Origin: a virus
Virus record (IMG/VR): IMGVR_UViG_3300046096_000411
Location: 29,363 to 93,362 of that record
Direction: 5' to 3' (one strand)
DNA: 64,000 nucleotides
This document shows, one piece after another, positions 11,861-64,000 of this stretch. Both the position numbers and the translations under genes were made by a program. How positions within the stretch are numbered: the first letter of the stretch is position 1; each line of letters begins with the position of its first letter. The notes beneath the pieces are model-generated. The model searched no databases. It was not told the origin of the DNA and worked only from the letters and a program-made list of their open reading frames with translations.

Positions 11861-11867
11861 TCACGAC
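11861..11867 (-). promoter_or_regulatory. Late promoter motif GTCGTGA-N3-NANNNT (1 of 10 copies)
   Basis: Also at 15880, 16640, 23436, 24764, 27728, 31586, 56463, 61695 and 63987, each just upstream of a minus-strand gene. Confidence 0.75.
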
Positions 11868-12789: not shown

Positions 12790-13247
12790 GAAAGCGCACG
12801 CGCCGAAAGATTTATGCGTTGGTTAACCCGATTGCCTACGCAATCGAGGGAGCAAGCGTAACCCCCACGGACCAGCTCGATAGCCTTCGTGTTCTAGAGC
12901 TGTCCGCCATTGATGCGGTCGCTCGTGGAATGGGGACTGTAAAAGACCTTTCGGCGCTGCGCGACATGGCTAACCTCTGTGAAATGATGGCGCTCGGAGG
13001 TGTTGGACCCGAGGCGCTGGAGCCGTCAAGGCTGGCGCAAAGAGAGATGATCGACATAGTGGAGCGCCGGAAAAGAACCGGTCGCATTGGCGCCACAGGC
13101 TCAGGCCTTGAATCATTCCGCGAGCTTTTCAGGTGGCACGACCTCCAGCGCACCAGCATCTCGCGCAGCGAGTATGAGAGATACATTGTGAAGACGACAA
13201 ACGCCGTCAAAGGTGGCAGGGCCACCGTGGTCAACTTGGACAGTTAA
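12786..13247 (+). CDS. Hypothetical phage protein
   Basis: 153 aa, coupled to dut. Confidence 0.65.
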   Translation: MRKRTRRKIYALVNPIAYAIEGASVTPTDQLDSLRVLELSAIDAVARGMGTVKDLSALRDMANLCEMMALGGVGPEALEPSRLAQREMIDIVERRKRTGRIGATGSGLESFRELFRWHDLQRTSISRSEYERYIVKTTNAVKGGRATVVNLDS

Positions 13248-15865
13248 ACCGCAATAAACAACGGGCACCCGGGGTCTGTTTCGCGCACGCGAACACCATC
13301 CCGCTCGTTGCATCGTCCGTTATCGAATGAAATACAGCGTCCGCACACGTCGCCTGACACCTGCAAAACCTCCTGAATGGCGTTGCTCAACGTCGGCGTG
13401 TACCGCTCAAGCACAACCTGCACCGACGTCTCCTTGGGCTTTTCTGGCTCCGGCAGGATAAACATATTGGTGCCATACGCGCGGGCCCATGCCACGTCCA
13501 CAAGCATGTTGGCGTAGCTGGTGTGCGGGTCGATGCCGACCTTCACCACCCGGCGTTTAAACTTTTTCTCTTCCTCGTCCTTTTCCGCGATCAGCGCTGT
13601 GCGGGTGAAGTGGAAGAACGCGTACTCCTTGCAGACGGCGGACATCCGCCATTTGCCCTTCTCCAGAACCTCCTGCACCAAGCCCTCGGGGTCAGGGAAC
13701 AGGCAGAGCTTTTTCTGGAAGCGACCCATAGACACCTGCATGCACTTGTACTGGTCGAGCGTGACGGTGAAGCGGTCCCGCAATTCCTCGTCCGTCCGGC
13801 GTTCGCTGGTGTCCAGCTTGGGGGCGTCGCCCCAGCGCAGCATGTCGCCCTCCATGTTGCCGTAGCCAGCCAGGAACACGCGGCCGTCATGGCGGCGGGC
13901 AAACGACTTGGCATTGTCGTAGTTGGGAAGCGTTTCCACCACACAGCACTGCACGCCGTAGGTCGACATCAGCTCGTCGCACCGGTCCCATGGCGAGGCC
14001 TCGGGGTCGTCTTTGGTGGGCGCTCGGAAGATGTACTCCATGTGCAGCACGGCCTGGCGGCCGTCGGGCAGCCGCTCCTTGATGATGGCCACAATGAAGG
14101 AGCCCATCTGGTCGAGCCCCATGAAGGTGCCCCTGCCATTGCGCCGCCACTGGAGCCCGTACTCCACACCCACGCGGGCGCACTCGTTGAGCATTTCCAG
14201 ATTCACCGGCACCTGTGACGGGTCGGTGTAGGGCTTGCCCAGCTTCCGGTTAAAAAAGTTCTTCATGTCGTCGGCGTTGTGGTACGCCTCGATGATGTCC
14301 CTGGGGCTGATTGTTGGCGACAGAAACTGCGGGAAGTGCACCGAGCGAATCTCGGAATCCGGCGTCTTTGCGATCCACTGGCCGATCTGCGGGTCGTCAA
14401 TCCACCCCTGGCACGACACGCACCGGTAGCGGTACTCGCCACGGGCGGCGCCGCCCTCGCGCTGCAGCAGGCGCGGAGCCTCGGGGTCGTAGCCGATGCA
14501 TTGGGGGAAATTTTCGTCCAGCACCTGTAGCATCGCGCAGTGCGGGCACTCGGTGTGGAACTGGTGCTGGGTGCCCTTTTTGTACCAGAAGTGAATGTCG
14601 GAGTCCGGCCAGTTGGCCGTGGAGCCCATGAGCGTGTACCGCAGCGACGAGGCGGACATACGCTCGCGGGTTTTCTCCATGTCCGCGATTGCCATCTCCT
14701 GCACCTCGTCAAACGAGACGACGTCCATGGGGAAGGATTCGGTCGCGGTCTTGCCGGTGGTCCACAGGAAGTGAAACCGGGACGAGCCCAAATTGCGAAT
14801 AAGGATGTTGCCCTCGCCGCCACGGCCGCCGGATGCCTGCTTCTCGGTCATCAGCGCGTACACGTCGGGTACCGTCCGCACGATGGGCATGAAGCGCTCG
14901 CTCGACTTGCCAGAGGCCAGCATCTGCGACGGCATAAACATGCCGATCTTGGCTGGCGAGAACCGCATGGCCAGGTAGATCATGGCCAACATTTCCATGA
15001 CGGTGAAGCCCACCTGGGTGCACTTCATGATCACGTCGGTACGGTTGAAGGCGTCCTCAATCGTGGCGGGGATGAGTTCGTAAATGAACCGCATCGCCGG
15101 GCGGTCGGACAGCGTGAATGGCCGGCCGTCAACCTTGAGCCCTTCGGCTTCCAGCCGCTCGCACCACTGCAGGAACGTCTCGCCGGGCTTGAGTGAGCGC
15201 TGCTCTTGGGTGAACTCGACCGCCACATCAAAGAACTCAGCACCGAACCGCTGGCGCTGCTCCAGCTCGGTGCCCAGCGACGCGGCCAGTCGCGCCTCTT
15301 CAGGTAGGTGCGGATTGCAGAAGCTGTCGAACTGCCACACCGACCAGTCGGGGTCAGTCTGTCCGAGCCGGCACAGCCGGTAGAAGTCGTTGCGCTTGCC
15401 GAAAGCCCCGGACAGGAACCATGCGTCGCCGTTGTAGACCTTCAACATGGGGCGAAGCACGTCCTCCCACAGATTGAGTAGGCCATCCACGAGCCGGGCG
15501 TCGTCCACCACGATCAGGCCGTACTGTTCGAACAGCTCCTGGGGCTTCTCGAAGCTGTAGAAGTCCACGAACCCGCCGGACACCAGCTCGATGCGTCGGG
15601 CGTTGACGCGGCGTTTGATGAGCGGGTCGATGGCGCGCATCACAAGGCGGCGAGCCTCAATCATGGCGTCGTCGGTCGGCGAGAACCAAGCAACCGGCTT
15701 CTTGCTGTTGAGCGCGCCCTTGGGGCTGGCGAGTAGCACCTCAATGCCAAGCGTTGTCTTGCCGAACTGCTCACCGGCGGCAACGGCGTTGTACCGGCTG
15801 GCGCGCGCCAAGGCCTTCTGCTGGGCCGCGTGGGGCGTTGGGAGCGATATTTTTACGGTAGCCAT
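13244..15865 (-). CDS. terL: Terminase large subunit (GpA-type) with an extra N-terminal degenerate terminase ATPase domain
   Basis: N-terminal GEQFGKT/IVVDDA; then MKCTQVGFT, VSFDEV, CPHC and GLDQ nuclease motifs. Confidence 0.88.
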   Translation of the reverse strand: MATVKISLPTPHAAQQKALARASRYNAVAAGEQFGKTTLGIEVLLASPKGALNSKKPVAWFSPTDDAMIEARRLVMRAIDPLIKRRVNARRIELVSGGFVDFYSFEKPQELFEQYGLIVVDDARLVDGLLNLWEDVLRPMLKVYNGDAWFLSGAFGKRNDFYRLCRLGQTDPDWSVWQFDSFCNPHLPEEARLAASLGTELEQRQRFGAEFFDVAVEFTQEQRSLKPGETFLQWCERLEAEGLKVDGRPFTLSDRPAMRFIYELIPATIEDAFNRTDVIMKCTQVGFTVMEMLAMIYLAMRFSPAKIGMFMPSQMLASGKSSERFMPIVRTVPDVYALMTEKQASGGRGGEGNILIRNLGSSRFHFLWTTGKTATESFPMDVVSFDEVQEMAIADMEKTRERMSASSLRYTLMGSTANWPDSDIHFWYKKGTQHQFHTECPHCAMLQVLDENFPQCIGYDPEAPRLLQREGGAARGEYRYRCVSCQGWIDDPQIGQWIAKTPDSEIRSVHFPQFLSPTISPRDIIEAYHNADDMKNFFNRKLGKPYTDPSQVPVNLEMLNECARVGVEYGLQWRRNGRGTFMGLDQMGSFIVAIIKERLPDGRQAVLHMEYIFRAPTKDDPEASPWDRCDELMSTYGVQCCVVETLPNYDNAKSFARRHDGRVFLAGYGNMEGDMLRWGDAPKLDTSERRTDEELRDRFTVTLDQYKCMQVSMGRFQKKLCLFPDPEGLVQEVLEKGKWRMSAVCKEYAFFHFTRTALIAEKDEEEKKFKRRVVKVGIDPHTSYANMLVDVAWARAYGTNMFILPEPEKPKETSVQVVLERYTPTLSNAIQEVLQVSGDVCGRCISFDNGRCNERDGVRVRETDPGCPLFIAV

Positions 15866-15907
15866 AACCCATCATTGTCTCACGACTGGATGGGGCTGGC
15901 AGGCGGG

Positions 15908-16639: not shown

Positions 16640-16981
16640 TCACGACGCGCGCTGCGGGCGACCGGTGTAGGGGGCGGTTGGTTGCAGGCGGGCGTGTTCG
16701 CGCCAGAACGCGGAGTACGCGTTATGAAGATCGTCGTCACGAACCGAGTTTTTGAAGTTGTCGTATTCAATGCTGGTGACCTCGGCGGAAATTGCCTCAG
16801 CGACCACATTGCGCGGCAGCACCGCGCGAAACGCGTAGTCGGTGTTGGTCGACTTTTTCACCTTGGCACCAGGAAACACGGCCTCGATGTCACCAGGTCG
16901 GCGCGCACGGACGAGCAGCTCGTCGGGGCCGCACTCCTTGGAAACGATGGACAGAAACGAATTATTCAAACAGACCCACAT
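16640..16981 (-). CDS. Hypothetical phage protein
   Basis: RBS AGGAG; LLVRAR, DYAFRA and YDNFK motifs. Confidence 0.7.
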   Translation of the reverse strand: MWVCLNNSFLSIVSKECGPDELLVRARRPGDIEAVFPGAKVKKSTNTDYAFRAVLPRNVVAEAISAEVTSIEYDNFKNSVRDDDLHNAYSAFWREHARLQPTAPYTGRPQRAS

Positions 16982-17816: not shown

Positions 17817-18611
17817 TTAGCTCTTCGGAGCGACCTTTGGTGCTTGGTGTAGCTTTTTCGGTGCAGGCCCAGCACCAACAGCCTCAGCAATTCCATGATC
17901 CGTTGGCATGTTGAGAACTTCGTACAGGTGTCCACGAGGGACGAGGCTCACGGCCTCTGATTCCCAGCCGCAGTCAGTTGGGTCGCCACCAACCCGCACC
18001 GCCCGGTAGAACCGGGCCTTGCTGGTGGTGCGCTCCACGTCCATCAGGAAGCCGGTGATCTTGATCTTCAGCCCACTTTCTTCGTGGGCCTCTTTCGCTG
18101 CATTACCTTGCAGGCTCAAGCCCTTCTCTGCGCCCCCTTTGGGGAAGCTGGCTTGGTACCCACCGAAGGCATTGGTCGGATGGATCACCCAGCACCGGCC
18201 GTCCTTTTCCTCAATCACAACGCCAGAGGCGACCGCCTTGCCGGGTGTGACATGGAACGCTGGTTCTTCAATGTCGTGATCAACGCAGTCCGAATAATCC
18301 CAACCCTCGGCCGTGGTCGGCGCATCGCGCCAGCGGCGAAACGGCACGCCGTTCAACTCGCGGGGCACGTCGCCACCAGGCACAAACGTGGCCACGGCGT
18401 CGGGGTTGTCCCAAGTGGACTCGGCCGACGGATGGTGCGGGGCCTTGACCAGCACGGCCTCGCCCTTTTCGCCCAGCTTCGGGTGATGGTGCGGTGGCAG
18501 CGGCTCGTGGCCGTTGCGGTCATACGGGCGGACGTAGTGCTCGCCGCGCATGTGGCCCTTGACGTGGGCCTTGGCGAGATCGTCGCCGAACTCCAGTACG
18601 GCATCAGTCAT
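17817..18611 (-). CDS. Nudix hydrolase with head-protein-like N-terminus
   Basis: Nudix box PKGGAEKGLSLQGNAAKEAHEESGL. Confidence 0.88.
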   Translation of the reverse strand: MTDAVLEFGDDLAKAHVKGHMRGEHYVRPYDRNGHEPLPPHHHPKLGEKGEAVLVKAPHHPSAESTWDNPDAVATFVPGGDVPRELNGVPFRRWRDAPTTAEGWDYSDCVDHDIEEPAFHVTPGKAVASGVVIEEKDGRCWVIHPTNAFGGYQASFPKGGAEKGLSLQGNAAKEAHEESGLKIKITGFLMDVERTTSKARFYRAVRVGGDPTDCGWESEAVSLVPRGHLYEVLNMPTDHGIAEAVGAGPAPKKLHQAPKVAPKS

Positions 18612-19113
18612 TGCCCACCACCCCCGTCAACGCCATAGAAATCGACCGGACGGCCGCCACCAGGGTCTGCTCTGTTTCCTCTCCTGGCGCGCCGGCGGAC
18701 GCCTCGCGCAACAGGTCGTAGACCGAATGCACGAACACGGCGAAGGCTTGGGCAACCAGCTGCACGTCGTCGTCGTCCGGCACCAGCTCCCGCTCCATGC
18801 GGTTGCGCAGGTGATCGGCCAGTGGTTTACCAGTCCAGTTGCGCACGGGCGCATAGGCGGGGTCCGCACCAGTGAACACGCTGGCGAGCTTCAGGCACTG
18901 CGCCCGGTCGGCGTCAGCGGCATCGCCGGGTGTGAGCACGCCGTGCCCAACCTCGTCAAACCGCGTGATTACTTCGGATGCGAAGCCGCGCACGATACGC
19001 TCGACCTCCCGAATGTCGCCCAAGTACACGCGGCCATCGGTGGCGGCCTTCAGGGACTCAAGAATGCCAGAGGGGTCGGTGTGGAGGTTAAGTTTTTCGG
19101 TCATTTTGGTCAC
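18604..19113 (-). CDS. Hypothetical protein (helical, acidic)
   Basis: 169 aa; overlaps both neighbouring genes. Confidence 0.65.
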   Translation of the reverse strand: MTKMTEKLNLHTDPSGILESLKAATDGRVYLGDIREVERIVRGFASEVITRFDEVGHGVLTPGDAADADRAQCLKLASVFTGADPAYAPVRNWTGKPLADHLRNRMERELVPDDDDVQLVAQAFAVFVHSVYDLLREASAGAPGEETEQTLVAAVRSISMALTGVVGND

Positions 19114-22100
19114 TCAGTTGGCAGAATAACGGCTTCGATCACGTGGCTTGACGATTTGCCAAACCCGTCCGCATCGCCGTCCTTGCCTTTTACAGACAGG
19201 ATCATAAGGCGAGTTCCAGGCGGGAGGATCATCTCATCCTCGCCGGAGTTTGAAGATAAAGCACCACCACCAGCAATCGAGTGGTACCCGACCCATAAAC
19301 CCTTCACGCCGGGGCCCACGTGTAGCTTCAGGTGCACGTTTCCACCCCAAGAAGACGGACGGATTGACGTGGACATGATCGCTGGCTCCTGAAGAATTTT
19401 CCCCGAGGACTTCAGCAGCTGATCAAGGTCACTGCCGTGCAGCGAAATCTTGCGCGACAGGACCGTGCCCGGTGCAATATCATGCCCCAGTGTTTTCAAA
19501 GCCTCGCCGGCAGCCTTTGCCGCGCCAGTCGGGTTGCCGCTCCACAGCGAGCCATTCATGGCGTGATACGAGCTGCCAGTGTAGCTCTTCACCGCCTGCT
19601 TTTGCGTGGCGGGCATTTTTGCAATCGCGGCTTGGGCCTGCTTGGCATAGGTCTGGGCGGAAAGCGCGCCGCCACCCTCTGCGTGCTTGATTTTTTCCGG
19701 CAGACCCAAATCCGCCAGATTTACCGACCCGGGCTCGCCGAGCACAATAAACTTGCCGAGCTTTTGCGCGACAGCGCTGGAAGCAGGACCAGTAAACGCG
19801 GGGTACGCAGCATTCAGCGAGTGCAGCGGGTGGCCGCCGTCAAACCTGAACTTCTTGGGCGGGTTTAGCTGGTAGTTGATCTCGTTGATGGCCTGCTGGG
19901 CGTAGCCCTTCACGTGCTGGCTGGGGTGCTCCAGCACAGGCTTGTGGCCAACAACCTGCCCGGAATCCTTGTCATAAACCGGCGCGGTCAGGCCTTTGAT
20001 GGCGTCCAAGTCGCCCGTCTTGGCGGCGGCGAAAACCGCCTGCACGGCTTCCTCGTTGGCTTTGTTGAGAAACTCCTTCGAGGAAGGGCCAGAGCTGCCG
20101 TTGCCGCCCCAGTTGAGAAAGGACGGCGGCGCGCTGATGTCTTCGGGTTTGAAGACCGGGGCCTTCTTCTTCTTGACGGCGGCAGGAAACCGCTTCGCCA
20201 GGTCGGCCTTGCGGGCAATAAGCGTCTCGGCCAACTTCGTCTTGGCTGCGGCATCGCCGGGTCCGTACTGGTTGACCATGGCGCGAATGGCCACGTCGCT
20301 GATGGCTAGCACCTTTGCCGCGCTGGCGGTCAGGTCGGCCTTGGTCATGCCCTTGAAGACAGACGCGGCCTGCGGGTTTTTGCCCGCGTCCAGCAGGGTG
20401 TCGAGCTCGTCCACCTTGGAGCCAAAAGGCTTCTTCTCGCCTTGGGCGCGGTATTCGAGCGAACCACCAGCATCCACGCGGTGGGCCTTGCCGTCGGGGC
20501 CAACCTGCAGGTTGTCGTAGCCGAGGCCGACCACGTCCCAGTTGCCCAGCCATGCATCAACCGCGAAACCGGCCTGCGCGCCATCAACCTTGGCAAGCGC
20601 GCCAGGAGTGGCGGCCTTTTTGATGTCCACCCACTTGGAGGCAATGCCGACCTTGCCACCCTTAGTGACAAGCACGGCGTCTTGGCTGGACAAGCCCGCG
20701 AGGGCGTACAGCTTGGCCGCGAGCACTTCGGACTTGGCGGTGTCGGCGTCGGCGGGGAATTTGCAGTACCACTCCTGGCCGGCGGGGTCTTTGAACTTGC
20801 CGCCGGGGTTGGAGCCGCCCTGCCCGCCGGTTTGAGCCCATCCGTCCATGGGGAGCATGCCGCCGGCGGCGGTTGGGGGCACCTGAGCTGCGGGAGCGGC
20901 GGCGGTTACGGGGGAGGGCCCGGTGCCATCGCTCCACGCAGAGGTGTCCACTCCCATGGCCTGCGCCACGGCTTTGATGTGGCTGGCAGTTTTGGGGAAG
21001 CTCATCGCGTGAGCCTTGGTGTAGGCGTTAGCCATGCCCACGCCGTCGCCTTTCTTGGCTGCGGCTGTGGCCAGCTTGCCTGCCCCGTTGTTTGAAAACT
21101 TAGACTGGCCTGGGCTGATCGTCTGGATGGCGGTACTGATGTCGATCAGGGTTGCCTTTTTGACCTTGGCCGGGGCGGCAGGCTTGTAAGTCGGGTCGAG
21201 CTTTTTCAGCGCGGCATCTGGCGGGATGGGGTATCCCATCGCCTTCATCTGGGGGAGAATTTCGGCGAGCGTTTCGCCCGGAATGGTGTCGGGCTCGGCG
21301 AACGAGTCATCCGTCACGCCAAATTCAAACCCGTCATCGCCGCCTCCGGCGAGGTAATAACCTTTCCCGTCTTTCTCAAATTCCAGCGATGGGCTGCCAT
21401 CGAGGCCGGGATTGGATGCCGAGTGGGTCCACCCACCCATGCCGTCATCCTGCTTGACCCAGTGCCCATTTTTGAACACCAGCATGCCGTCGGCGCCAGG
21501 CTTTGTGTCGCCTTCCTTGGGGCCGGGCTCCACGGCGGCTGGGGCTTCGTACTCGTGCTGAGCGGTACCGGAATAGTTGTAGCCCTTGGCCTTCTTCTCC
21601 CCCATGAGCTTGACGGCGGCATTTTTTGCGGCCTGCTCGGATGGAAATACCTTCTCGGTGACCTGCCCCTTGGTGCCGATTTTCCCGTAGTGCGTCTTCA
21701 TCACGGAGCCGAGCGTCGACACCGACCAGAACTTGCTGTGGCCGGGCTCCTTGTTTTCGTAGAGCGGGGCGTCGATTTTTAGTTTTTGCGCGGGGGTTGC
21801 AGGCGCAGCTGGGGCGGGCGCAGGGGAAGCCCGCTGAGGCTTCGTCCCAGCCAGCGCATGCCCCTGCAGCTCTTGCGCTTTCTGCTGAGCCGCCTCCAAA
21901 GCGTCATCGTAGTCTTCGTCCGTTTGCTTTTCTGCCGGCATACTCTCGTTCACGGCATCCATGAAGTATTCCATGGCGGCGTCCGGGTCGTGGTCCGTCA
22001 GCGCCTCGTAGGCATCGGCCTGCGCCTTGGTGGGGACTTTCCCAGCGGAGATTGCGGCCTTCCACTCGCTGACGACGGGGTATGGGTCGGCGGCTGGCGC

Positions 22101-23420
22101 GGGGGGTGTAGCAGTCTGCATCCCGATTGCCGCAGCATGGTGCGACAGGTCGTGCGACGCCAGTGCATCGTGCATTTCAGGCTCGCCGCCAGGATTTGCT
22201 GCCAGCCAGTCCTGAGCCGCGAGCTTGGCGGCGATAACCTTGTCGTAGGGTGACGACATTTTGTGCGCAGCCAGCGTGTGCGCGAGGTGGTCGTAGGCAG
22301 GCTTACCTTGGAGCGCAACCGGCGCAGGCTCCACAGGCACAGCCGCGGTCGCGCCATCCACACCCAGGCCGGCCAGCGCGGTCTGCGCGGTGAGAGCCTG
22401 CTTCTTGGCGTAGGTCTGCTTGGCGTCGGCCTTCGAGTTGATAAAGGCCTGCAGCCCGGCGGTGTCGCCAGCGAAGGCCATGGCCTCGATCTTCGCCATG
22501 GCGGCGTTGTGGCTCTTGGCGTTGGTGTTCTCGGGGGGCAGCTTCAGCTTGAACCATGGGATGGATTGCAGGTTCTGCAGCTGCTGGGCTGAGAGCGCAC
22601 CAGAGGCGGGCGGGGCCGATGCCGGAATCTCGGCTTCGGGAGCGGCGGGCGCGGCGGCCTGCGGAGCTGCCTGCTTTTTGGCCGTGCCCTTGGCAACAGC
22701 CTCGGCCAGCGTAGCGGCGGGGATAGTCGCGGAGTTTGTCTGGTTCGGCACCTTCGCGCCGACCTTGTGCATGTAGACATGCTGGCCGTCGGGGCTGGTG
22801 TTGTAGACCACCCACTTGCCGGCGTTCATCTTCTCGTACTGGCTGGAGAACTCGAAGACGGTGCCGGTTGCTACAGTTTCGGCAGATGCCGGAGTAATCG
22901 CGGCGGGCTCGGGCTCCTTCGGCGCCAGGTGCTCAGGCAACCCAGTCGGATGCGGGTCGGCGGGCTCAGCCACCTGGGCGGCGGCGTGGGTACCGGGTTT
23001 CTGGCCCGGGGTGACGGTGTGCGTAGAGCCGTGCAGGCCCAACAAGTGGTTGGCGATTTTCGCCAGCTTCGCGCCGTAGGTGTTCGTGCCAAAACCCGCA
23101 CCAACGATGGCCGTCACATCGCCCGCATCGGACCACGCGCGCAGCTTTTCCAGCGCCTTATTGAAAACGGGCGCGTTCACATTGGAGTCCGGCAGCTTCA
23201 GCGCGGACCATTGGTCGTCGGTAAAGTGCGCGGCGGCCTCGTGGTGCCCAGCGGATTTGGGGTGCGCAGCGACAGGTGCGCCCTTGGGGGCTGGTGCGTC
23301 TTGGGTGATCTTTCGCCACCGGGGAGGGTTGCCGTAAAGAGCGTACCCACCCTTATGGGCAATCGAGGTGCCGGTGCCGGGTCCGGATTTCAGCAGCAGG
23401 ATGAGACGCGGTGTGTTCAT
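19110..23420 (-). CDS. Polyvalent protein: WGR domain + HipA/PI3K-like kinase fold + VIP2/Alt-like ADP-ribosyltransferase
   Basis: KFWSV...YGKIG...KKAKGY (WGR); GSNPGG, WYCK, SEVLA, DAWLGNWD, DN, RVDAG (kinase); YTGSSY.AMN, R, MSTS, EDEMILPPGT (ART). Confidence 0.85.
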   Translation of the reverse strand: MNTPRLILLLKSGPGTGTSIAHKGGYALYGNPPRWRKITQDAPAPKGAPVAAHPKSAGHHEAAAHFTDDQWSALKLPDSNVNAPVFNKALEKLRAWSDAGDVTAIVGAGFGTNTYGAKLAKIANHLLGLHGSTHTVTPGQKPGTHAAAQVAEPADPHPTGLPEHLAPKEPEPAAITPASAETVATGTVFEFSSQYEKMNAGKWVVYNTSPDGQHVYMHKVGAKVPNQTNSATIPAATLAEAVAKGTAKKQAAPQAAAPAAPEAEIPASAPPASGALSAQQLQNLQSIPWFKLKLPPENTNAKSHNAAMAKIEAMAFAGDTAGLQAFINSKADAKQTYAKKQALTAQTALAGLGVDGATAAVPVEPAPVALQGKPAYDHLAHTLAAHKMSSPYDKVIAAKLAAQDWLAANPGGEPEMHDALASHDLSHHAAAIGMQTATPPAPAADPYPVVSEWKAAISAGKVPTKAQADAYEALTDHDPDAAMEYFMDAVNESMPAEKQTDEDYDDALEAAQQKAQELQGHALAGTKPQRASPAPAPAAPATPAQKLKIDAPLYENKEPGHSKFWSVSTLGSVMKTHYGKIGTKGQVTEKVFPSEQAAKNAAVKLMGEKKAKGYNYSGTAQHEYEAPAAVEPGPKEGDTKPGADGMLVFKNGHWVKQDDGMGGWTHSASNPGLDGSPSLEFEKDGKGYYLAGGGDDGFEFGVTDDSFAEPDTIPGETLAEILPQMKAMGYPIPPDAALKKLDPTYKPAAPAKVKKATLIDISTAIQTISPGQSKFSNNGAGKLATAAAKKGDGVGMANAYTKAHAMSFPKTASHIKAVAQAMGVDTSAWSDGTGPSPVTAAAPAAQVPPTAAGGMLPMDGWAQTGGQGGSNPGGKFKDPAGQEWYCKFPADADTAKSEVLAAKLYALAGLSSQDAVLVTKGGKVGIASKWVDIKKAATPGALAKVDGAQAGFAVDAWLGNWDVVGLGYDNLQVGPDGKAHRVDAGGSLEYRAQGEKKPFGSKVDELDTLLDAGKNPQAASVFKGMTKADLTASAAKVLAISDVAIRAMVNQYGPGDAAAKTKLAETLIARKADLAKRFPAAVKKKKAPVFKPEDISAPPSFLNWGGNGSSGPSSKEFLNKANEEAVQAVFAAAKTGDLDAIKGLTAPVYDKDSGQVVGHKPVLEHPSQHVKGYAQQAINEINYQLNPPKKFRFDGGHPLHSLNAAYPAFTGPASSAVAQKLGKFIVLGEPGSVNLADLGLPEKIKHAEGGGALSAQTYAKQAQAAIAKMPATQKQAVKSYTGSSYHAMNGSLWSGNPTGAAKAAGEALKTLGHDIAPGTVLSRKISLHGSDLDQLLKSSGKILQEPAIMSTSIRPSSWGGNVHLKLHVGPGVKGLWVGYHSIAGGGALSSNSGEDEMILPPGTRLMILSVKGKDGDADGFGKSSSHVIEAVILPTE

Positions 23421-23453
23421 CCGCGCATTTTGAAGTCACGACGCGCGGCAGCG

Positions 23454-23964: not shown

Positions 23965-24345
23965 TCAGACAACGCTCCCAGCGGCCAGCTTGCTGCGAAG
24001 CTCGTAGCCCATGAGGGGCCACACCTTGTTGATGGCGTTGGCGCGGGCAATCTTGCGGCCCACCTCGGCGTCGAAGTTTTCCGGGCTGGCGCAGGCGCTT
24101 TCACCAGTGACGGTGAAGCCGTTACGCAGCATCAGCACACAAAACGTCAGCAATCCGAGTGAGGACGGGATAGCGTTAAGTTCTTCGTCGCCTGAACCCT
24201 TCGGCAGAGTGGCAACAACTCCAGCCGCTGCGGTGAAATAGTGCTCGCTGACGATGTTCGCCTCGATGTCCGCAGGCGTCACGCGCGGGGCGGTCAACCC
24301 CTTAGCGACAATCTCGGCCTCAATGGCCTGATCGGCCGCGCTCAC
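23965..24345 (-). CDS. N4 gp49/Sf6 gp66 family protein (candidate Acb4-type nucleotide sponge)
   Basis: APRVTPADIE...LTFCVL.LRNGFTVTGESACASPENFDAEVGRKIA...VWPLMGY; GTG start. Confidence 0.8.
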   Translation of the reverse strand: MSAADQAIEAEIVAKGLTAPRVTPADIEANIVSEHYFTAAAGVVATLPKGSGDEELNAIPSSLGLLTFCVLMLRNGFTVTGESACASPENFDAEVGRKIARANAINKVWPLMGYELRSKLAAGSVV

Positions 24346-24725
24346 TGCACCACCTCGGGCGCCTTCACCATGCCAATCGACTCGCGGGCCTTGAGCACCT
24401 TGTCGGCGTCGGCCAGGCGGTTGATCATGTCCACAGCGGCAGGGTCGCCAGCAGCAGCGGCGGCCTCGACGGACTTGGACGCGCCAACCGTGTCGAACAC
24501 GAATGTGCACTTGTGCTGGGTGCCGCCAACGGGGAAGCTGGTGCCATCCCACACGACGAGCAGGTCTTCGACGTGCTGCTCAGCGGCGGCAGACACGCCC
24601 ATCAGCACCAGAGGCGGCAGGTCGGAGACGAACTCGCCGTCGCCCTTGTGAATGAAAAGCATGTTGCCGCCGGTGGGGCTGGCGACGACAAGGACGGCGT
24701 CCTTGGGAAGTGAAAACGAAAACAT
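24342..24725 (-). CDS. Hypothetical protein
   Basis: RBS AGGAG; late promoter motif upstream. Confidence 0.6.
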   Translation of the reverse strand: MFSFSLPKDAVLVVASPTGGNMLFIHKGDGEFVSDLPPLVLMGVSAAAEQHVEDLLVVWDGTSFPVGGTQHKCTFVFDTVGASKSVEAAAAAGDPAAVDMINRLADADKVLKARESIGMVKAPEVVQ

Positions 24726-24851: not shown

Positions 24852-25655
24852 GTGACTGCAAATAATTCTACAGTAAAAACATTTTACACCTACGCGCACT
24901 ACCGCGCGGACCAGCCGGAGCGCGGTCCGTTCTACATCGGCAAGGGCACGGGGCCACGGGCGTGGAAAACATCAGGCACGGGCAGATCAAAGTGGTGGCA
25001 GCGCATCGTTGCAAAGCACGGGCTCAAGGTCGAAATACTGGCTCCATGGCCAACGGAGGACGACGCATACAGCCACGAGCGGCTGATGATTGAGTGCTTC
25101 CGCGACCTCGGTGATCTGGTGAACCTGACATCCGGCGGCGACGGCCTACGCGACCCAGACGGGTCCATTCGGGCGCGCATCGGAAGCAAAATCCGGCGTC
25201 ACTGGGAAGACCCAGCAAGGCGCGCGCATTGGCTGGCCCAACGCAGCACACCCGAGGTTGTTGCGAAAAAGAGCAAGGCGCTGCGCGAGGCATTCGCCGC
25301 GCCTGGCAGCAAGGAGAAGCGCAGCGCGGCGGTAAAGGCATCGCACTCCAGGCCAGAAGTCCGGGAGCGCATCCTGAAGAACGCGGCAGACCCTGGATAC
25401 CGCGCCAAGCTCAGCGCTGGCGTGAAGGCGGCCCTCGCAAGACCGGAGGCCAAAAGCCGAAAGTCGGCAGCCAGCAAGGCCATGTGGAAAGACGAGAAGC
25501 ACCGCGAGCGATTCGCGGACCTGATGCGCCAGAAGGCCGAGGAACGGTGGGCAACGCTGCCGCCCGAAAAAGCCGCCAAGCTACGCCATGCGGCGGAGCT
25601 GGACCGCGCTCGCAAGGAGCGCAAGCGGTCAGAAAACGTCAACAGGATCGACTGA
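24852..25655 (+). CDS. GIY-YIG-like homing endonuclease with basic helical repeats
   Basis: FYTYAH...FYIGKG...R...E...LVNLTSGG. Confidence 0.8.
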   Translation: MTANNSTVKTFYTYAHYRADQPERGPFYIGKGTGPRAWKTSGTGRSKWWQRIVAKHGLKVEILAPWPTEDDAYSHERLMIECFRDLGDLVNLTSGGDGLRDPDGSIRARIGSKIRRHWEDPARRAHWLAQRSTPEVVAKKSKALREAFAAPGSKEKRSAAVKASHSRPEVRERILKNAADPGYRAKLSAGVKAALARPEAKSRKSAASKAMWKDEKHRERFADLMRQKAEERWATLPPEKAAKLRHAAELDRARKERKRSENVNRID

Positions 25656-27107
25656 TTGATTGGCGGCGATCTCGGCGCCCGCCTCGGACCCGATCCGCTG
25701 CTCACCATCGCGCGGGAACGTCTCGCGCGTCACCGCGTGCACAGCATGGACGCCCGTGAACATCTCCAACCGGCGCACGATGACATCGACGTACTTGGGG
25801 TCCAGCTCCATGAGGCGCGCGCGCATGCCGGCCTGGTGGGCGGCAACAGCGGTGGAGCCAGAGCCACCAAAGGCATCCAGAACCACGTCGCCGGGTCGCG
25901 CAGAGTTGCGGAGCTGGCGCAGCACCAGATTGGTCGGCTTCATGGTCGGGTGAAGATCGGACTTTGACGGGCGTGGCTCCTGGATCACGGAGCTTGGAGC
26001 GGACTCGACCGTGGCGTCACCGGACACGATGAACACCTCGTCGCCGATTACCACCTTCCAGCGCCCATCCTCCATTTTCTGGAACGGGCTACCCGAACCC
26101 ATCTCGGAGAACGTCGTCTGCTTGCGACCGCCGTACCAACGATGCGCAGCGCCCGGTTTCCAGCCGTAGAGCGCCGGCTCAGAAATTGGCTGATGATCCC
26201 AGCGCGACAGCACGAGCGAGTTCTTCTTCCACGACAACACGCTCTGGAGCTTAAAGCCCGCATCACGGAAAGCCGTCCTGAAGTTGATCCCTTCGCTGTC
26301 CGCATGGAAAACGTAGATGGCCGAGCCGGGCTTCATCTGGTCAAACACGGCGCGGTACATGGCCAGCAGGAAGTTGTAGAAATCCTTGTCACCCATCGAG
26401 TCATTCAGGATCGCGCCGGTCTTGTTTTTCCGGCCTTGGGACTTGGCGATCTGGTCGTTTTTCCCGCCGATATCAACGTTATAGGGCGGATCGGTCCAGA
26501 CCACATCGGCCAGCTCGCCAGCCATAAGCACGTCCCAATCCTTCGGCTCAAGCGACGAGCCGCACATGACGCGGTGCCCGGCGACCTCCCACACGTCACC
26601 CAGGCGCGAGTGCGGCACCACAGGAACATCCGGCACGGCATCGGGGTCGCCCCCGGCACCAGACGCATCAGGATCGACCATGCCCTCGAACAGCTTGGCC
26701 AGGTCTTCCTCGGCAAAGCCGGTGTACAGCTCGAGGTCGTAGCCAGCGGCACGCAGGTCGTCGGTTTCGAGTTTCAGAACGTCCAAGTCCCACGTGGCCA
26801 TCTCGGCCAGGCGGTTGTCGGAGATCACCAGCGCGCGGCGCTCGTCGTCGGCGAGGTGGGACAGGTCGATGCCGGGTACGCGGGACAGGCCCAGCTTTTT
26901 CGCGGCCATGATTCGGCCGTGACCGGCAAGGATGCCGCCATCAGCCACCAAGATGGGGGTGGTCCAGCCGACGCGCTGGATGGTGCCAGCGAGCGCCTCG
27001 ATTTGAGCCGGGCTGTGCTTGCGGGAATTTCGAGCGTAAGGCAGCAGCGCCTCGACCTCGAACATGCGAATCTCAGACGGCATCCGCACGCCTTCATCGG
27101 CCGCCAT
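25629..27107 (-). CDS. ParB-N domain fused to N6/N4 DNA methyltransferase
   Basis: PYARNSRKH, ILAGHGR, DNRLAE; TDPPY, HPTMKP, LDAFGGSGST. Confidence 0.93.
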   Translation of the reverse strand: MAADEGVRMPSEIRMFEVEALLPYARNSRKHSPAQIEALAGTIQRVGWTTPILVADGGILAGHGRIMAAKKLGLSRVPGIDLSHLADDERRALVISDNRLAEMATWDLDVLKLETDDLRAAGYDLELYTGFAEEDLAKLFEGMVDPDASGAGGDPDAVPDVPVVPHSRLGDVWEVAGHRVMCGSSLEPKDWDVLMAGELADVVWTDPPYNVDIGGKNDQIAKSQGRKNKTGAILNDSMGDKDFYNFLLAMYRAVFDQMKPGSAIYVFHADSEGINFRTAFRDAGFKLQSVLSWKKNSLVLSRWDHQPISEPALYGWKPGAAHRWYGGRKQTTFSEMGSGSPFQKMEDGRWKVVIGDEVFIVSGDATVESAPSSVIQEPRPSKSDLHPTMKPTNLVLRQLRNSARPGDVVLDAFGGSGSTAVAAHQAGMRARLMELDPKYVDVIVRRLEMFTGVHAVHAVTRETFPRDGEQRIGSEAGAEIAANQSVDPVDVF

Positions 27108-27712: not shown

Positions 27713-28208
27713 GGGCGAATCCTGCCATCACGACCGGACGGGCCCGCGTCGCGCCCTTGGGGCAGGCAGAGTGAGCGAAACCCACGCCCAGCAAGGCCGG
27801 GCGGGCACAGGCTCGGTGACTTGCAATCATTTCGACCGCGAGCGGCCAACAAAAAGGCCCAGCGGTGGGGCTGGGCCAGTGAGGGAGGAACAACGTCAGC
27901 GAGCAGAGCGACACCATCGCCAAGTGCCCCGACTGCGCCAAAGCCAGCGGACGCCCCACAAGGCAGCGTCCAGCAGCAGGAGCGCAACGACCCCACCGGA
28001 AATGAGCAACGGGCCCGCCAGCAGCGCAAACAGCCACGGGCCCTCGATGATGATTAGGTAGGCCAGCAGCGACAGCCACAGCGTGACGGCGTACAGGCAG
28101 GCAATCAGGACGTGCACCAGAGCGACTCCATCGGCGGCAACGGCCAAGGGTAGGGCGGCGTGCGGGAGCTGGCTCATGGGAAGGCGGGAAAAGCCGTGAC
28201 GGGCCGGG

Positions 28209-56415: not shown

Positions 56416-56478
56416 GGTGATGCGTTGAGATGTTAGATTCGGGCATGAAGCAGATTCTTGCATCACGACGACTGGGCG

Positions 56479-63971: not shown

Positions 63972-64000
63972 GGTTTTAGTGTTGCGTCACGACGATGCGG

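Follow-up and report, generated by a model that had tools for sequence, protein, structure and literature searches.

A single gene of a tailed phage with a genome of 93,362 bp encodes a 1436-residue protein that combines a WGR domain, an atypical HipA/CtkA-like kinase and a toxin-type ADP-ribosyltransferase (ART), the last predicted to be of the arginine-modifying type. The open reading frame occupies positions 19110..23420 on the minus strand of the window, the whole stretch of 64,000 nucleotides that was analysed, and consists of a mosaic N-terminal half followed by a conserved C-terminal block of kinase, mid domain and ART. We hold it to be probable, at roughly 60%, that this protein is a polyvalent virion cargo, which would be packed with a small acidic protein and a Nudix hydrolase from the neighbouring genes and injected, whereupon its kinase and ART would modify the host.

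A predicted kinase joined to an Alt/VIP2-type ART

Searched as a whole against Pfam, PHROGs, NCBIfam and PADLOC, the protein matches WGR and ART families only, while the kinase, the mid domain and the repeats are without a match. The kinase domain (20163..20861, minus strand; residues 854-1086) was recognised from a fold match and conserved residues, in agreement with the initial annotation, which had placed a HipA/PI3K-like fold at about 20200-20830. The best match in VIA-align is CtkA of Helicobacter pylori (PDB 3akj; Z 15.9, rmsd 3.4, 209 residues aligned, 18% identity), followed by CotH (Z 13.4), MavQ (13.0), PI4KIIalpha (12.6), HipA (11.6) and actin-fragmin kinase (11.0). All of these matches cover residues 1-237 of the model, where pLDDT is 75-94, and a two-lobed kinase fold is predicted for residues 854-1086. 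The closest folds come from protein kinases (CtkA, CotH, HipA) as well as from lipid kinases (MavQ, PI4KII). A candidate catalytic set (K887, E898, D955, N960, D962, N970 and D983) is invariant or nearly so in alignments A1 and A2, and the predicted model puts these residues on the strands and helices where they would be looked for. Kinases of the HipA/CtkA/PI3-PI4 type have an ATP-binding Lys, a helix-C Glu, a catalytic D..N loop and a metal-binding Asp, to which the conserved Lys, Glu, D-x-x-x-x-N-x-D, N and D of the phage domain may correspond. Unlike CtkA and HipA, the phage kinase is embedded in a multi-domain phage protein, and it has no counterpart of HipA's N-terminal domain.

No Pfam kinase family matches the 1436-residue protein at E <= 1, and among PDB sequences neither phmmer with the whole protein nor hmmsearch with the kinase-domain alignment reached a kinase, the only matches being to WGR domains and ARTs. 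Because there is no Pfam kinase match and the family profile reaches no solved kinase, the domain is classed as a fold-level relative of the HipA/CtkA/PI3-PI4 kinases, outside Pfam HipA_C and HipA_2. Distant members of the kinase domain do match Pfam HipA_C, HipA_2 and APH, and these proteins often bear ART or DRAT domains.

The ART forms the C-terminus (19113..19673, minus strand; residues 1250-1436), where a VIP2/T4-Alt-like domain of the R-S-ExE type had been expected at about 19115-19620. It matches Pfam ADPrib_exo_Tox (PF03496) with an E-value of 2.3e-7 (30.8 bits against a cut-off of 23.4) and phrog_802, 'Alt-like RNA polymerase ADP-ribosyltransferase', at E 3.3e-7. Fold comparison with C3bot2, Certhrax, C3stau2 and VIP2 gives Z 15.9-16.6 with rmsd 2.6-2.9 over 172-178 aligned residues, and Foldseek returns E ~1e-8. 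The domain belongs to the R-S-E (C3/VIP2/iota/Alt) clade, including the N-terminal helices of that family. Its motif residues are R1323, S1350-T-S1352 and E1394-D-E1396, and the Arg, the S-T and both Glu are invariant across 28 sequences. That an E-x-E motif goes with arginine specificity is a rule established for the C3-like, iota-like and Alt ARTs, and because of this rule the phage ART is predicted to modify arginine. Taken together, the K/E/D/N/D set of the kinase (invariant or nearly so) and the R/ST/ExE set of the ART are kept across relatives of 35-98% identity.

Between the two domains lies a mid domain (19686..20153, minus strand; residues 1090-1245) with pLDDT 70-91, present in 223 of the 253 sampled relatives over which domain architectures were counted. 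Residues ~1113-1145 of this domain were suspected by eye to be a divergent third copy of the N-terminal repeat, a reading that was dropped because BLASTP found no match. The linkers between domains are low-pLDDT stretches of the structure model and are rich in Pro and Ala, as had been noted from the sequence.

A mosaic N-terminal half

Foldseek and VIA-align searches with the N-terminal 850 residues taken as one piece single out the WGR domain alone and find no enzyme domain. Supposed at about 21570-21780, the WGR is confirmed by Pfam and by fold at 21546..21779 (minus strand; residues 548-625). The Pfam PF05406 match covers residues 558-617 (E 2.6e-11, 43.9 bits against a cut-off of 22). The Bacteroides protein 2ra8 is reached by phmmer at E 7.8e-6 and superposes with Z 11.9 and rmsd 0.9 over 70 residues, and the WGR domains of PARP1 and PARP3 give Z 7.4-7.8. 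Instead of W-G-R-x-G the motif here reads Y-G-K-I-G, as it does in 2ra8. This domain is found in 70 of the 253 sampled relatives (~28%) and is missing from the other 183 (~72%). It is followed, in the relatives as here, by a conserved beta-hairpin motif (21450..21524, minus strand; residues 633-657) that runs from a GDTK to an NGHW motif, forms three short strands in the structure model, and is present in 214 of the 253 relatives, with multiple copies in 83.

The internal repeat that the initial annotation had described in two copies was recovered as such. Copy 1 (23016..23210, minus strand; residues 71-135) begins at W71 and copy 2 (22365..22556, minus strand; residues 289-352) at W289; both are helical, with pLDDT of ~94 and ~95, respectively, and BLASTP aligns one with the other at E 1e-7. 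Many relatives carry the repeat in multiple copies. In the VIA-align and Foldseek searches, the repeats show a weak similarity to helical-hairpin folds (Z ~7.5), and residues 184-252 give a weak SH3-like match (Z ~5.5).

The first 60 residues (23241..23420, minus strand) form a conserved segment with the motifs LLLKS and G-Y-x-L...R-W-x-K. It is present in 146 of the 253 sampled relatives and also in the consensus of alignments A1 and A3, and it is a candidate tag for capsid targeting or processing. A second giant protein of the same phage, which carries an SNF2 helicase, begins with a similar motif, PRLLIKA. The pattern h-x-K-[S/A] occurs within the first 35 residues of 5 of 80 crude open reading frames, against 1.6% of internal windows, and is at most suggestive of such a tag.

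Relatives, neighbouring genes and particle association

The protein belongs to an abundant family. It has hundreds of close members (more than 656), and the kinase domain extends across thousands of sequence clusters, with 4695 representative ones matching. The phages of the family have genomes of ~90-100 kb, Dolphis, Jeremy, Touem01, ST4 and fHe-Yen8-01 among them, and infect Pseudomonas, Aeromonas, Yersinia, Escherichia and Morganella, with many members from uncultured hosts. The kinase is retained in all 253 sampled relatives and the ART in most of them, and the N-terminal half is mosaic.

Downstream of the ART is a gene for a small acidic protein (18604..19113, minus strand) of 169 residues, or 166 from the first ATG, whose start overlaps the stop of the ART by 4 nt. 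This protein has no family match in Pfam, PHROGs, NCBIfam or PADLOC and no usable match in the ESM Atlas; it is 35% identical to gp130 of Yersinia phage fHe-Yen8-01. Overlapping it in turn is the gene for a Nudix hydrolase of 264 residues (17817..18611, minus strand; Pfam NUDIX, E 6.6e-9), which is 45% identical to gp131 of the same phage and whose Nudix box has another residue in place of its first Glu. The order and the overlap of kinase-ART, small protein and Nudix are kept in Jeremy, in fHe-Yen8-01 and here. In the GenBank record of fHe-Yen8-01, the orthologue of the 1436-residue protein, gp130 and gp131 are all marked 'particle associated'. The particle association of these three orthologues is taken from the database record, and a literature search found no paper on fHe-Yen8-01 behind it. 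Nor was a paper found that joins a HipA-like kinase, an ART and the virion, and the Mecenats66 paper contains neither proteomics nor a mention of this protein.

The kinase domain also recurs beside head proteins. In a 1349-residue Endozoicomonas protein it is fused to Phage_Mu_F (MuF), and in Gordonia phage Phendrix it lies in a giant protein encoded directly after the portal and minor-head-protein genes. The same position is occupied by a giant protein on the Pseudomonas juntendi record p2463-1, which is filed as a plasmid and bears phage head genes. The 1436-residue protein itself showed no MuF, portal domain, zincin peptidase or any other domain typical of polyvalent proteins.

The initial annotation set the gene among packaging genes and gave it a late promoter. 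TerL and portal do lie downstream, at 3 kb and 7 kb, with the Nudix and endonuclease VII-like genes in between. The gene itself stands at the edge of a block of DNA-metabolism genes (gp49/66, ParB-methylase, endonuclease VII-like), outside the head-gene block. As for the promoter, the motif GTCGTGA (23436..23442, minus strand) is located 15 nt upstream of the ATG and precedes the portal, TerL and other genes with the same spacing; this shared motif is all that was found of the putative late promoter.

A probable virion cargo and competing readings

Proteins with several effector domains have been described from phages and conjugative elements as polyvalent proteins (Iyer, Burroughs, Anand, de Souza and Aravind, 2017; PMC5512222), a survey later extended (PMC9503650). 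With at least two effector domains in one phage polypeptide, the protein described here is akin to them. It likewise strings its domains and linkers along one long chain with a mosaic, fast-changing content, and it would resemble them in a tie to head-packaging genes and in the delivery at invasion that is predicted for both. The domains themselves differ. Where the ART of polyvalent proteins is Tox-ART-HYD2, the phage protein carries one of the Alt/VIP2 R-S-E type; the kinase in the survey belongs to a truncated Ser/Thr/Tyr-kinase clade, whereas the phage kinase is HipA/CtkA/PI4K-like; and WGR is unmentioned in either survey, with 0 occurrences (PMC5512222; PMC9503650). Both surveys make the case that ARTs and Nudix proteins go into the particle when a phage encodes them amid its head genes (PMC9503650; PMC5512222).

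The second comparison is with the T4 Alt/VIP2 clade, with which the phage protein has in common an R-S-ExE ART, a gene near head and packaging genes, and an orthologue recorded as particle-associated. T4 Alt is packaged into the head, processed by the prohead protease and injected, and it modifies the alpha subunit of RNA polymerase. By analogy, the same mode would be expected here, with injection along with the DNA and arginine ADP-ribosylation of host proteins. A functional equivalence with T4 Alt would have indirect support in the note of the fHe-Yen8-01 record and in the conserved N-terminal LLLKS motif. The phage protein is twice the size of T4 Alt and adds the kinase, the WGR, the repeats and the conserved mid domain. 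Its sequence similarity to T4 Alt itself is marginal, and nothing points to RNA polymerase as the target.

Packaging is supported by the three marked orthologues of fHe-Yen8-01, by kinase relatives that are fused to MuF or adjacent to portal genes, and by the GTCGTGA motif that the gene has in common with the portal and terminase genes; the conserved N-terminal tag and the argument of the surveys for packaged ARTs and Nudix proteins add to this. The cargo reading is weakened by a protein without a MuF or portal fusion, a gene outside the head-gene block and the lack of a paper found behind the fHe-Yen8-01 marks; the missing Pfam match of the kinase, a profile that reaches no solved kinase, and fold neighbours among protein and lipid kinases alike also count against it. 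As to injection, enzymatic activity, arginine specificity and targets, we infer the following course. The protein would be expressed alongside the head and packaging genes, enter the capsid in company with the Nudix and the small acidic protein, and be carried into the host cell with the DNA as infection starts. Inside, the two catalytic modules would act independently: the HipA/CtkA-like kinase may use ATP to phosphorylate hydroxyls on host proteins, or possibly another substrate, and the C3/VIP2/Alt-type ART with its E-x-E motif would use NAD+ to ADP-ribosylate arginine residues. The outcome would be takeover of the host or a disabled defence. The variable N-terminal half, with its repeats, beta-hairpins, WGR and small domains, may serve for targeting, docking or spacing, and the WGR would be an optional module for nucleic-acid binding or tethering rather than an allosteric switch. 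Of the virion-delivered effector writing two modifications that the initial annotation had proposed, delivery and two chemistries remain a probable reading, given the fHe-Yen8-01 marks, the MuF fusion, the portal adjacency and the predicted catalytic residues; its PARP-like activation is unlikely.

It is conceivable, although we consider it rather doubtful, that the ART, kinase and Nudix form a single pathway on one substrate in place of independent enzymes. Trimming by the Nudix could leave a phosphoribosyl mark on an ADP-ribosylated target, a molecule derived from ADP-ribose could be what the kinase phosphorylates, or all three enzymes could destroy or convert immune signals derived from NAD+ or ADPR. 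The recurring company of these enzymes favours such a pathway: besides the gene order and overlap kept in three phages and the ART or DRAT domains on distant kinase proteins, kinase and Nudix are found in one chain in the P. juntendi p2463-1 giant protein and, fused, in a 715-residue protein of P. cerasi and P. fragariae (Pseudomonas syringae group). In the latter, the kinase domain is 35% identical to that of the phage (E 3e-37) and the Nudix 44% (E 4e-39), and the gene adjoins one of the GH5 cellulase family. This protein fits HopAG1, a P. syringae type III effector with a published layout of an N-terminal ART and a C-terminal Nudix (PMC9963460), by its length, its N- and C-terminal layout and its neighbourhood, not by an annotated record. 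Since it resembles HopAG1 and bears a like kinase and Nudix, a delivered effector appears to use the same enzyme set. The two systems differ in that the HopAG1-type protein has another domain order with all enzymes in one chain, whereas the Nudix is a separate gene in the phage, and in that HopAG1 travels by type III secretion into plant cells. Against a common pathway, fusion and co-occurrence indicate a functional link, not a common chemistry, and the nearest kinase folds target hydroxyls of proteins or lipids. Moreover, BLASTP finds no similarity between the N-terminal region of the P. cerasi protein and the phage ART, the identification with HopAG1 goes by layout, and the phage Nudix box has its first Glu replaced. 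Because a single pathway is compatible with virion delivery, it would refine the cargo explanation and not replace it.

A broader conjecture, which we put forward as speculative, is that this kinase, the R-S-E ART and this type of Nudix constitute one conserved three-enzyme chemistry, used as virion cargo of ~90-kb phages against bacteria and as a HopAG1-type type III effector against plants, with the optional WGR directing it to nucleic acid. The ART may add an ADP-ribose adduct that the Nudix then trims and/or the kinase phosphorylates, or the chemistry may convert or destroy immune nucleotides derived from NAD+ or ADPR.

We find it improbable that the protein is an unpackaged late or middle enzyme that modifies host or phage proteins in the producing cell, like T4 ModA/ModB. 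On this reading, contamination or a peculiarity of that lineage would account for the 'particle associated' note of fHe-Yen8-01. In favour of an unpackaged enzyme, one could adduce the lack of a publication found behind the note, the lack of a MuF or portal domain and the DNA-metabolism genes as upstream neighbours. Yet the orthologues so marked are three and adjacent, the kinase domain turns up again fused to MuF and in giant proteins beside portal genes, and the gene has its upstream motif in common with the portal and terminase genes.

A PARP-like switch, in which the WGR would sense DNA or RNA ends and allosterically activate the ART and/or the kinase, can claim a genuine WGR structurally near those of PARP1 and PARP3 and a union of WGR fold and ART in one polypeptide that is otherwise typical of PARPs (PARP1-3), but it is very improbable because the phage ART has the R-S-E triad on a C3/VIP2 fold in place of the H-Y-E of PARPs, no PARP helical regulatory domain was found beside it, a stretch of ~630 residues that takes in three further domains and low-pLDDT linkers lies between it and the WGR, whose motif is Y-G-K and not W-G-R, and ~72% of relatives are without a WGR even though all keep the kinase and most the ART.

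Modifying enzymes that arrive packaged in the phage head, T4 Alt being one, belong to the earliest phage proteins at work in the infected cell and are foremost among the candidates for host takeover and counter-defence. The kinase type that is joined here to an Alt/VIP2-type ART is unnamed in current domain libraries, and polyvalent proteins are explicitly stated to lack the combination of the two. That kinase and Nudix recur together, in separate genes here and fused elsewhere, points to a common biochemical module that can be tested, and the mosaic N-terminal half provides a natural experiment on what accessory modules, including the WGR, contribute. Among the relatives of the kinase domain there are also giant proteins with multiple kinases (P0144 and others).

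Two predicted enzymes in a modular protein

The window comes from a single 93,362-bp contig whose phage genes include those for the portal and the large terminase. Its ORF at 19110-23420 on the minus strand encodes 1436 residues in the longest reading from an ATG, with a start that aligns with Met1 of its relatives. The initial annotation interpreted the product as an injected effector writing two modifications, and the two enzymatic folds it named, a VIP2/T4-Alt-like ADP-ribosyltransferase (ART) with R-S-ExE residues and a HipA/PI3K-like domain, are both recovered. At the C-terminus, Pfam ADPrib_exo_Tox is matched with E 2.3e-7 (30.8 bits against a cut-off of 23.4), and PHROGs matches are to "ADP-ribosyltransferase exoenzyme toxin" and "Alt-like RNA polymerase ADP-ribosyltransferase". 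In an AlphaFold2 model of residues 850-1436 (built from 28 sequences; mean pLDDT 85), model residues 392-585 resemble C3bot2, Certhrax, C3stau2 and VIP2 with Z 15.9-16.6, and Foldseek gives E ~1e-8. The catalytic residues are R1323, S1350-T-S1352 and E1394-D-E1396; among these, no variation is seen in the R, the S-T or either Glu across 28 relatives. An E-x-E motif in this ART clade goes with an arginine acceptor, and arginine is the acceptor predicted from it here.

Preceding the ART is a kinase domain (model residues 5-237, protein residues 854-1086) whose best fold match is H. pylori CtkA (Z 15.9, rmsd 3.4, 209 aligned), followed by CotH (13.4), MavQ (13.0), PI4KIIalpha (12.6), HipA (11.6) and actin-fragmin kinase (11.0). 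Pfam has no match to this domain, and its family profile reached no solved kinase among solved-structure sequences; HipA_C, HipA_2 and APH are matched by distant members only. Its relation to the HipA/CtkA/PI4K group is at the level of the fold, and it lies outside any named family. The candidate catalytic set comprises K887 in the third strand, E898 in the next helix, the loop D955-x4-N960-x-D962, N970 and D983. All are invariant in close relatives, and down to 35% identity the only one to vary is K887, at 90% conservation or more. With their catalytic residues thus conserved, both the kinase and the ART look catalytically competent.

The N-terminal half is of a different nature. Its model (residues 1-850, mean pLDDT 79) consists of confident small domains between disordered Pro/Ala-rich stretches, in agreement with the linkers proposed earlier. 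Only one module has a clear solved relative, the expected WGR domain (Pfam, residues 558-617, E 2.6e-11, 43.9 bits against a cut-off of 22). Its fold matches the Bacteroides protein 2ra8 with Z 11.9 and rmsd 0.9 over 70 residues, and the WGR domains of PARP1 and PARP3 with Z 7.4-7.8. A fold search with residues 1-850 modelled as one piece detected no other enzymes. The internal repeat is also real: its two copies, beginning at W71 and W289, are related with a BLASTP E of 1e-7 and are both confidently helical, and 121 of 253 sampled relatives carry it in multiple copies. A third copy suspected in the mid domain (residues 1090-1245) was rejected as BLASTP gave it no support.

A fixed C-terminal block and a shuffled N-terminal half

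Residues 850-1436, used as a query, retrieved over 656 relatives, which range from 1084 to 2253 residues in length and share 57-98% identity in the C-terminal block; most come from contigs of ~90-100 kb. Cultured members include the Pseudomonas phages Dolphis, Jeremy and Touem01, together with Aeromonas phage ST4, Morganella phage Mecenats66, Yersinia phage fHe-Yen8-01 and Escherichia phage ECML-606-1, where the protein is annotated as "ADP-ribosyltransferase (toxin)" or "hypothetical". One 70%-identical relative (P0071) lies on the 5.35-Mb chromosome of Kaistia sp. 32K and others on ~101-kb Salmonella enterica contigs; therefore, some members of the phage group may be integrated or kept as episomes. 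Among 253 collected proteins, all of which have the kinase by construction, 223 contain the mid domain and 160 the ART. The N-terminal tag occurs in 146, the repeat in 183, a GDTK...NGHW hairpin in 214, the WGR in only 70, and each remaining N-terminal module in 12-35. Domain maps show the kinase-mid-ART block as fixed and the N-terminal half as shuffled, with a GNAT or ART-PolyVal domain added in some relatives. On its own, the kinase domain has matches in 4695 representative clusters, 1067 of them at E <= 1e-30; the proteins concerned are as long as 7004 residues, at times carry several copies of it and often also have an ART or DRAT domain. Several Endozoicomonas genomes hold multiple kinase-domain copies on different contigs.

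The reading as an effector with two predicted writers is supported, while the PARP-like activation by nucleic acid that was proposed with it is unlikely. The ART here is of the R-S-E type rather than the H-Y-E type of PARPs, no PARP-type helical regulatory domain was found in the protein, the WGR is separated from the ART by ~630 residues and several flexible linkers, and most family members lack it. A putative role of the WGR in nucleic-acid tethering or targeting is more plausible than such a switch.

Among known systems, the nearest are T4 Alt with the head-packaged ARTs of the Alt/VIP2 clade, and the polyvalent proteins described by Iyer et al. In contrast to these, an Alt/VIP2-type ART here stands in a polyvalent context, which was said not to occur (PMC5512222), the kinase type is absent from domain libraries, and a subset of the family carries a WGR, a domain mentioned in neither survey (PMC9503650; PMC5512222).

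Gene neighbourhood and probable delivery in the particle

ARTs and Nudix proteins whose genes lie with the head genes of phages have been argued to be packaged and injected (PMC9503650; PMC5512222). Evidence in relatives makes delivery in the virion likely for this protein as well. Its gene overlaps in series with those of a 169-aa acidic protein (18604-19113, minus) and a Nudix protein (17817-18611, minus), and the same succession is found in Jeremy and fHe-Yen8-01, the latter having orthologues of the two small proteins at 35% and 45% identity, respectively. The GenBank record of fHe-Yen8-01 notes all three products as "particle associated", a note for which a literature search found no underlying paper. 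In a 1349-aa Endozoicomonas protein (L028:4285-8334, plus), Phage_Mu_F at residues 71-198 is followed further on by the kinase domain. The kinase is also part of a 1479-aa protein encoded immediately after the portal gene in Gordonia phage Phendrix, and of a 1466-aa "NUDIX domain-containing protein" encoded immediately after the portal (DUF935) and minor-head-protein genes in a P. juntendi record.

The motif GTCGTGA precedes the ATG of the ART gene, portal, TerL and several other minus-strand genes by 14-15 nt (11861-11867, 15880-15886, 23436-23442, 27728-27734, 56463-56469 and 63987-63993), with no recognisable Shine-Dalgarno in between. At 16640, 24764 and 61695 it is further upstream, with a GGAGC ribosome-binding site after it. 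In all, 17 copies occur in the window, where 9.1 would be expected. GTCGTGA may serve as a phage promoter or as some other control element close to the start, and its sharing fits co-regulation of the ART gene with packaging genes. Just upstream of the ART gene are a gp49/gp66-family protein (23965-24552, minus; PF13876, E 2e-33) and a fusion of ParB-N with an N6/N4 DNA methylase (25629-27107, minus). The large terminase (13244-15865, minus; 873 aa) matches a gpA-type ATPase/terminase over residues 230-796 and, separately, a terminase-like family (phrog_2) over 9-213, and therefore has an extra N-terminal terminase-related module.

A second giant protein of 1516 aa, encoded just upstream of the window (L085:2802-7352, minus; genome 21801-26351), ends in SNF2/DEAD helicase domains. 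Its N-terminal PRLLIKA is similar to PRLILLLKS of the ART protein, in which LLLKS is conserved, and motifs of this kind show a modest N-terminal enrichment (5/80 ORFs against a 1.6% background). Judged by sequence, they may form a packaging or processing tag shared by two polyvalent-type proteins of one phage.

The kinase and Nudix domains

Most worth pursuing is the recurrence of ART, kinase and Nudix as a triad. A 715-aa ORF next to a GH5 cellulase-family gene in P. cerasi (L044:5179-7326, plus) and P. fragariae (L045) has a kinase domain 35% identical to that of the phage (E 3e-37) and a C-terminal Nudix 44% identical to its separate Nudix protein (E 4e-39). The ORF fits the published layout of HopAG1, a type III effector with an N-terminal ART and a C-terminal Nudix (PMC9963460); the passages on HopAG1 consulted in that paper leave a middle kinase domain unmentioned. 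BLASTP found no similarity between the N-terminal region of the P. cerasi protein and the phage ART. The kinase and Nudix are also fused in the 1466-aa protein of P. juntendi p2463-1 (L003, 4555-8955). Together, these two proteins provide fusion-type evidence suggesting that this kinase type and this Nudix type work together. Although filed as a plasmid, p2463-1 (65.6 kb) has portal (DUF935), minor head protein, protease and capsid genes beside the kinase-Nudix protein, and is therefore probably a phage-plasmid. In the phage Nudix protein, the Nudix box reads G-x5-L-x7-K-E-A-H-E-E-S-G-L, which keeps the E-x2-E-E core but has other residues in place of the canonical first Glu and Arg, and the N-terminal extension of ~120 residues is conserved in fHe-Yen8-01.
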